In this document: positions 2,618 to 3,592 of the stretch, in pieces
Numbering within the stretch: position 1 is the stretch's first letter
How the letters are laid out: each line of letters starts with the position of its first letter
Notes under the pieces: model-generated
The model's input: only the letters and a program-made list of their open reading frames with translations
Database searches by the model: none
What the model was told of the DNA's origin: nothing
DNA from: Promethearchaeati archaeon
Lineage (GTDB): Archaea > Asgardarchaeota > Heimdallarchaeia > Heimdallarchaeales > Heimdallarchaeaceae
NCBI GenBank assembly: GCA_013166775.1
Contig: JABLTJ010000009.1
Coordinates: 35,931 to 99,930, forward strand
Direction of reading: 5' to 3'
DNA: 64,000 bases
Program-made: the position numbers and the translations under genes

Positions 2618-3592
2618 CTACATTGAGGTTAAGAATTTTTCCACTATTTCATCAACATTGATTTTGTTGATTTTACAGTATTTTTCTGAGATTATAGGTG
2701 GATGATTTCCTTGGTGGACTTTTCCTCCAAAAAATATTTTCCCAAAATAGATTGGATTTATGAGGATTTTTTCAATCTTAGCAACATCAGATTTAGTCTT
2801 TTCAGCTATTTCAGCTAGACTCTTCTCCTGCAGGTAGAGTAAAGAGAACATTAGTTTGACTTTCATAGCTTCGTCGTCTTTAATCTCTAATTTACCCTTT
2901 ACCAGATTATATCCGTAAGGAATGGCATCACCTGATACATCTAATGTTACTGTTAACAAACCACCATCTTTTGCAACATCTTCATGTAACTCGGGGGGAT
3001 CTTCAACTTTGACAATTTCTGGTTCAGGTACTGGTTCAGGCTCCTCTTCGTCTTCTTCGGCTTCTTCAATTTCCTCTTCGACTTCTTCGGCTTCGTCGAT
3101 TTCCTCTTCGTCGGCTTCGTCGTCTTCGGCTTCGTCGATTTCCTCTTCGTCGGCTTCGTCGTCTTCGTCTTCGTCGGCTTCGTCGTCTTCATCTTCTACG
3201 ACTTCTTCTACGACCTCATCAATTACTTCTTCTGAAACAGGTTCTTCTAAAACTTCGTCGACTGCTTCTTCAACAACCTCTTCGATATAATCTTCGACAA
3301 CATCTTCAATGACTTCTTCTTCAGTTTCTTCTTCCTCAATCTCTTCTTCGGCTTTTTCGGCTTCTTCCTCTTCCTCTATTTCTTCATCTTCAGTTACTTC
3401 TTCCTCAATCTCTTCTTCAACTTCTTCTTCAACTTCTTCTTCCATTTTTAATTCAATTCCTTCATCAATTTTATCTTCATTTTCTTCTTTTTTAAACTTC
3501 AGAGCAGTATCTTTAGTCAAATCAGCAATTTGATCATCAAGTTTTTCTTGCAGTTTTTCCTTAAGTTTTGATTTGATTTCATCTTCTTCCAA
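2618..3592 (-). CDS. Extremely acidic protein with a C-terminal large-serine-recombinase 'Recombinase' DNA-binding domain; no catalytic resolvase domain
   Basis: 'PYGYNLVKGKLEIKDDEAMKVKLMFSLLY..KSLAEIA...IEKILINPIYFGK...GNHPPIISE' matches the LSR recombinase-domain pattern. The N-terminal ~200 aa are E/D-rich. TTG start with GGAG upstream. Confidence 0.75.
   Translation of the reverse strand: MEEDEIKSKLKEKLQEKLDDQIADLTKDTALKFKKEENEDKIDEGIELKMEEEVEEEVEEEIEEEVTEDEEIEEEEEAEKAEEEIEEEETEEEVIEDVVEDYIEEVVEEAVDEVLEEPVSEEVIDEVVEEVVEDEDDEADEDEDDEADEEEIDEAEDDEADEEEIDEAEEVEEEIEEAEEDEEEPEPVPEPEIVKVEDPPELHEDVAKDGGLLTVTLDVSGDAIPYGYNLVKGKLEIKDDEAMKVKLMFSLLYLQEKSLAEIAEKTKSDVAKIEKILINPIYFGKIFFGGKVHQGNHPPIISEKYCKINKINVDEIVEKFLTSM
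3084..3190. repeat. Intragenic tandem repeats: a 39-bp unit x2 plus shorter related units, encoding DEADEEEIDEAED
   Basis: tcttcggcttcgtcgatttcctcttcgtcggcttcgtcg occurs at 3084-3122 and 3123-3161, followed by partial copies. Confidence 0.85.

Follow-up and report, generated by a model that had tools for sequence, protein, structure and literature searches.

The window, that is, the whole stretch of 64,000 nucleotides that was analysed, carries a gene on its minus strand in which the Recombinase domain of large serine integrases is preceded by a long and strongly acidic tract. It is a domesticated host gene, chromosomal and single-copy, of one Ca. Heimdallarchaeota genus, and we regard the identity of the domain, its conservation and the purifying selection acting on it as firmly established. 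The reading that we prefer for its product, with a probability of roughly 0.4, is a dimeric, polyanionic chaperone or decoy that binds basic proteins, rather than a factor that binds the repeats of the neighbouring array.

The gene, its distribution and its ancestry

The gene and the features that define it are as follows.

2618-3592, minus strand: gene for the acidic-tail Recombinase-domain protein, 324 aa (ORF call, Pfam, orthologues)
3600-3606, minus strand: Shine-Dalgarno sequence AGGAGTG, kept among orthologues
3629-3656, minus strand: TATA-like promoter motif, conserved, and unique in this genome by position weight matrix (PWM)
2621-2920, minus strand: Recombinase domain, aa 225-324, including a conserved helical extension at its C-terminus (Pfam, model, Foldseek)

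The reading frame begins with TTG and has 324 codons, and both the TATA-like motif and the Shine-Dalgarno sequence lie at a fixed distance upstream of all sixteen full-length copies, including translocated ones. A C-terminal Recombinase domain had been recognized in a sequence-only reading of the same DNA, and this is borne out: PF07508 (curated cut-off 21.1 bits) matches aa 240-305 with 24.3 bits in the whole protein and 29.4 bits in the C-terminal part alone, the best solved relatives are fragments of the A118/LI integrase (E 2e-5), and Foldseek, given the domain as modelled by AlphaFold (pLDDT 84), ranks 4KIS first (TM 0.66). That reading was also correct that the catalytic resolvase domain is missing, as a Pfam search of the frame gives no match to PF00239 with its nucleophilic serine; nor does Pfam match a zinc ribbon or coiled coil after the Recombinase domain in the 324-aa protein, which ends about 20 aa past the H-PII motif.

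Of 25 genomes of the genus, 18 contain the acidic form; a search of 96 genomes outside it gave none. Domestication, as the sequence-only reading proposed, is upheld by these orthologues, which keep the Recombinase domain across the genus without a catalytic domain; at about 50% identity, the domain has a median dN/dS of 0.22 (range 0.1-0.4). An integrase remnant in decay, its acidic tract a product of neutral repeat expansion, would fit the free variation of tract length and repeat units and the location of the gene in an insertion hotspot, but this reading is largely refuted and very improbable, with open frame, promoter and Shine-Dalgarno sequence all kept between such diverged orthologues, dN/dS within the range above, and new invariant residues outside the ancestral domain. 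Translocated copies have dN/dS values of 0.34-0.40 versus 0.10-0.24 for the others (Fisher p 0.007). Relaxed selection after translocation is nonetheless doubtful, as dN relative to PAC2 and Elp3 is alike in both groups.

A short form of 148-178 aa occurs as a paralogue in this genome and elsewhere. The copy here (contig C75, L004:1237-1773) is a basic protein of 178 aa that consists of the Recombinase domain only, with a domain net charge of +18 and an ordinary recognition helix, and probably resembles the ancestor more closely. Together the short and the acidic forms are one clade in the tree (support 97/99), within which the acidic forms are a subclade (100/93); this clade is not joined to the two catalytic serine recombinases of the genome (C65 and C80), in a tree whose backbone lacks resolution among serine recombinases. 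The G002 copy (L042, G002:C68) groups with a different clade from that of the G002 marker genes, reflecting either transfer or bin contamination (7%). A single distant match (33%) was all that was obtained when viral homologues of the acidic protein were sought, and a literature search found no description of an acidic Recombinase-domain protein. In a plausible course of events, a stand-alone Recombinase domain, still represented by the short paralogues, acquired a long polyanionic linker. The acidic subfamily would then have exchanged helix E and the minor-groove linker for a conserved beta-strand through which two subunits pair, and its recognition helix would have been acidified.

Predicted dimer strand, DNA-contact surfaces and acidic tract

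Four further features lie within the protein, one of them with an internal repeat.

2915-2980, minus strand: family-specific GG-x-strand-xxG segment, aa 205-226, in place of helix E, at the centre of the modelled homodimer interface (invariant K, GG and G; interface model)
2759-2785, minus strand: recognition helix, aa 270-278, equivalent to helix H of the LI integrase and acidified in the family (alignment to LI integrase)
2978-3457, minus strand: polyacidic tract, modelled with low confidence and probably disordered, aa 46-205, 63% D/E (composition, pLDDT)
3076-3176, no strand assigned: 39-bp tandem repeat inside the tract, 2.6 copies, lineage-specific (repeat search, 95%)
3473-3592, minus strand: N-terminal mixed-charge helix, aa 1-40 (pLDDT 74-89 for aa 1-30; comparison of N-termini)

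The segment before the domain contains an invariant lysine, a Gly-Gly pair and a further glycine around a hydrophobic strand that is of low confidence in the monomer model. Modelled as a homodimer the protein scores 0.79, a mark reached by 20 of 30 solved homo-pairs and by 1 of 23 single chains, and the best of three controls scores 0.02; the homodimer runs agree in at least 81% of contacts with pLDDT of at least 89. The top contacts are between aa 210-221 of either subunit, across a two-fold axis, such that the interface is centred on the family-specific strand. Solved integrases are not known to have this strand; their subunits pair by way of helix E and the catalytic domain. Since they pair differently and without it, the score is unlikely to come from recall of a solved complex. 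Helix E has been described as an integrase pairing element (PMC3783163). Going by the interface model, the acidic protein probably forms a homodimer.

In the LI integrase the E-beta6 linker contacts the minor groove of DNA and Tyr207 and Asn208 of helix H the major groove, with helix E as a further contact (PMC3783163). Helix E and the basic minor-groove linker are absent before the Recombinase domain of the acidic protein, and the acidic strand segment is in their place. At the position of Asn208, 17 of 19 acidic-type proteins have D or E versus 5/33 catalytic recombinases and 0/4 short paralogues, and at that of Asn211 the counts are 18/19, 4/33 and 0/4, although these are not independent events because the 19 acidic sequences are one clade. 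Mean net charge of helix H is -1.2 in the acidic family versus +1.5 to +1.9 in the other groups, the 25 aa preceding PYGY average -3.3 versus +3.4 in catalytic recombinases and +7.3 in the host recombinases, and the core domain is close to 0 versus +3.8 to +8 elsewhere. The copy in the window is among the least acidified, with the helix VAKIEKILI (net +1), alanine at the Asn208 position and glutamate at that of Asn211. Several lysines are invariant across the acidic family, and the helix-turn-helix fold is intact in the model; the short paralogues are basic and keep S/T and K on the recognition helix. On the strength of these alignments we lean towards the view that the acidic family no longer reads DNA in the canonical way.

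The main rival to a polyanion that binds basic proteins is a weak DNA binder, namely a dimeric DNA-binding regulator or chromatin protein of altered specificity, in which the acidic tail auto-inhibits, speeds target search or contacts the transcription machinery. The intact helix-turn-helix fold, the invariant lysines and the basic character of the short paralogues, with S/T and K on their recognition helix, are all in its favour, as is the predicted dimer, which would suit a palindromic site; a palindrome, TATAAATATTTATA, is indeed found in several orthologue promoters. D/E tails tune DNA binding in HMGB1 (PMC10250230), and catalytic-less Recombinase-domain proteins with extra helix-turn-helix domains are common among the matches. 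However, a core charge near 0, an acidic recognition helix, an acidic linker where the minor-groove arm would be and a tail of -104 all point away from DNA, and a regulon sought from the promoter motif gave one match in the genome by PWM. No regulon is thus visible, the motif occurring just once, and we consider the regulator a real but doubtful candidate.

The 206 aa before the domain are 57% D/E overall, and the tract proper has an AlphaFold pLDDT below 50; of all 100-aa segments in the predicted proteome, the most acidic (67%) falls inside aa 46-205. The sequence-only reading had described a polyacidic tract of about 200 aa, which is right as to acidity but too long, the purely acidic part being about 165 aa because the first 40 or so form the mixed-charge helix. 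This helix is common to most short paralogues and is lost or acidified in most orthologues. It had also been proposed that the tract expands through 39-bp tandem repeats; the repeat is real, but it spans just 101 bp and is not present in the orthologues compared, three of which have 57-bp units instead. Sixteen full-length copies have 138-215 aa before the domain, with 53-58% D/E and a net charge of -70 to -107. Length and repeats vary while the D/E fraction holds in all 16, and what is conserved is therefore charge rather than sequence.

The gene and the repeat array

The array is best understood from the structured RNA gene at its other end.

10638-10912, minus strand: structured RNA gene, 275 nt, with a closing stem shaped like a bulge-helix-bulge; source of the array repeats (folding, conservation)
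3820-3855, minus strand: most distal, decayed copy of the 3' end of the RNA gene; other copies start at 5241, 6290, 8157 and 9005

The minus strand of the RNA element folds better than the other (z -6.6 versus -4.6), its closing stem is conserved in 11 genomes, and it tolerates hairpin insertions. It is present family-wide, includes a conserved loop with ACCUCC (anti-Shine-Dalgarno-like), and has no Rfam match; SRP and RNase P RNA were considered and rejected as identities, both of those RNAs being encoded elsewhere in the genome. Gene order across the family is PAC2, RNA gene, variable zone, rpS30e and Elp3. The array repeats copy one arm of the element, the 3' strand of the closing stem, and are therefore displaced 3' ends of the RNA gene, which explains their conservation. 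Such a pattern is familiar from islands at tRNA genes. No further copies of the five occur elsewhere in the genome, where from 3820 to 10637 they split variable genes into blocks of 0.85-1.9 kb; relatives have 0-6 copies, and there is no integrase gene in the array locus. The cargo includes a SecY homologue (3863-5149, minus strand, PF00344 E 1e-50), and SecY is array cargo in G006 and G019 as well. On the other side of the acidic-protein gene, a methyltransferase-like frame (1270-2083, plus strand) has its upstream part cut by a TAA near 1499, and is open throughout in a relative (L129).

The nearest repeat begins 228 bp from the start codon of the acidic-protein gene. The sequence-only reading had put this interval at about 230 bp, which is accurate for the window, and took it as a hint, short of proof, of a link to the array; the hint is not borne out, as the distance varies from 91 bp to about 8 kb among genomes. 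Synteny, its proposed check, also separates the two: in G004, G007 and G017 the gene is absent from the stretch between the RNA locus and Elp3 and is found intact among other neighbours, and in G017 a repeat and a cargo gene persist although the acidic-protein gene sits elsewhere. In G008, G010, G012 and G023, where the gene is in the variable zone, no repeats were detected between it and the RNA gene. That the gene is itself a cassette of the array was considered and rejected, as no repeat copy is present on its far side at any of 17 loci. Arrays are seen only in the genus that has the acidic protein, while sister genera have the RNA gene and no acidic protein; this confinement is a single phylogenetic coincidence, and action in trans is conceivable. 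We infer from synteny that the acidic protein is, in all likelihood, independent of the array.

Two short serine recombinases, of 239-249 aa, are encoded in this genome (C65, L001:1489-2208; C80, L002:1489-2238), each with a catalytic serine motif and without a zinc ribbon. Similar-length matches to the C65 type are present in most genomes of the genus, and G027, G028 and G030 also share its two upstream ORFs; the copy on G028:C68 lacks the catalytic serine motif, and the type is possibly domesticated. A stand-alone serine resolvase catalytic gene, which the sequence-only reading thought worth seeking, was not found, PF00239 matching only these two, each with its own Recombinase domain. No zinc-ribbon integrase was found in the genome, which is 89% complete.

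The sequence-only reading had proposed a non-catalytic att-binding factor, for instance a directionality factor. One that governs insertion at the repeats of the array could draw on these two intact recombinases in trans, on the restriction of arrays to the genus of the protein, and on a repeat in which a central dinucleotide lies inside an inverted repeat (CCTG-AA-CAGG), as in serine-recombinase sites. We consider it most unlikely. The repeats are already accounted for as the 3' strand of the RNA closing stem, the DNA-facing parts of the protein are lost or acidified, and linkage is not constant, with gene and locus apart in three genomes, one of which (G017) retains repeat and cargo, and with four others in which no repeats between gene and RNA were detected. 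The apparent relaxed selection in translocated copies also vanishes once dN is compared with control genes. A directionality factor in particular would have no zinc-ribbon integrase to act on: the phiC31 directionality factor gp3 binds the zinc domain (PMC5814800), and that domain is missing from both host recombinases, which argues against such a role.

The location of the gene invites another explanation, in which its product acts in trans as a partner of the structured RNA or of adjacent RNA-processing and translation genes (Nop56, fibrillarin, Elp3, rpS30e). A position in the variable zone is probably ancestral for the genus because it is found in three deep lineages, and there the gene comes next downstream of the RNA gene, in the same orientation, with 175 bp between the two in G008. 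But the RNA gene is also found in sister genera that lack the protein, whose strong negative charge is a further objection, and the interval is an insertion hotspot crowded with unrelated genes, and we consider this partnership improbable.

Putative clients and known systems compared

The polyanion that we prefer would have a small dimeric core with two flexible tails, each with a charge of about -70 to -107, and the tails would bind basic nucleic-acid-binding proteins such as truncated histones or ribosomal and RNP proteins. Both the clients and the chaperone role are things that we infer only; the suggestion in the sequence-only reading that the acidic region acts as a DNA mimic or chaperone is plausible and putative.

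We note that at least four histone-like ORFs of the alpha3-truncated (face-to-face) type are present in this genome (G000:C37:19718-19933, C37:20122-20328, C1:198833-199084 and C7:24621-24866). An absence of histones from the family, suggested by PF00808 matches in 3 of 30 genomes, was rejected as a false negative, a permissive local search having found the four. The same type is reported for another Heimdallarchaeia genome (bioRxiv 10.64898/2026.07.02.735847). Neither truncated histones nor the RNA gene is confined to the genus, and therefore nothing specific ties the acidic protein to either. A more specific and rather unlikely scenario is that a nucleoplasmin-like acidic chaperone for alpha3-truncated histones, with an oligomeric core and polyanionic tails, arose independently in an Asgard lineage from an integrase DNA-binding domain; if histone chaperoning is true, it would be a prokaryotic parallel to the eukaryotic acidic chaperones in close relatives of eukaryotes.

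The gene is a clear case of exaptation of a mobile-element domain in Asgard archaea, and one genome shows both stages of it: a paralogue that is short and basic and whose recognition helix is ordinary, and a form that is long, acidic and probably dimeric. New elements are the acidified recognition helix, the predicted dimer strand, the intermediate represented by the short paralogue, and the comparison of synteny that tests linkage to the array. The acidic protein does not supply the missing machinery of that cassette array. Interest is limited by restriction to one uncultured genus and by partners that are putative.

Among known systems, the Recombinase domains of the LI/A118 integrase (PDB 4KIS, 6DNW) and of SPbeta-type integrases have the same fold and the same motifs (PYGY, EA, IL-NP-Y-G and G-H-PII), with a TM of 0.66 and 24% identity in the alignment to LI/A118. 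Unlike the LI/A118 integrases, the acidic protein is without catalytic domain, helix E, zinc ribbon and coiled coil, and has an acidic recognition helix, a predicted dimer strand and a long acidic tail. Archaeal stand-alone or HTH-fused Recombinase-domain proteins, for which a literature search found no description, also have the domain without a catalytic one (126-141-aa Nanobdellota clusters; HTH-RD-RD-wHTH proteins of about 360 aa, RD being the Recombinase domain), but those inspected have net charges of +17 to +52 and ordinary recognition helices, and none has an acidic tail. In the 360-aa family with its winged HTH (P0011-P0019; L087:5001-6101), whose members have no catalytic domain, one lies near a tyrosine integrase gene. 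Directionality factors of the phiC31 gp3 type are alike in being non-catalytic proteins in a genome with serine recombinases, but differ in that the host recombinases here are without a zinc domain and the acidic-protein gene adjoins no recombinase gene. Nucleoplasmin/NPM, Nap1 and prothymosin alpha illustrate the combination of an oligomeric folded core with long D/E-rich disordered tracts. The likeness to them in layout of the acidic protein as a predicted dimer serves as a working analogy only, and there is no kinship of sequence or fold, the fold of the acidic protein being that of the Recombinase domain.
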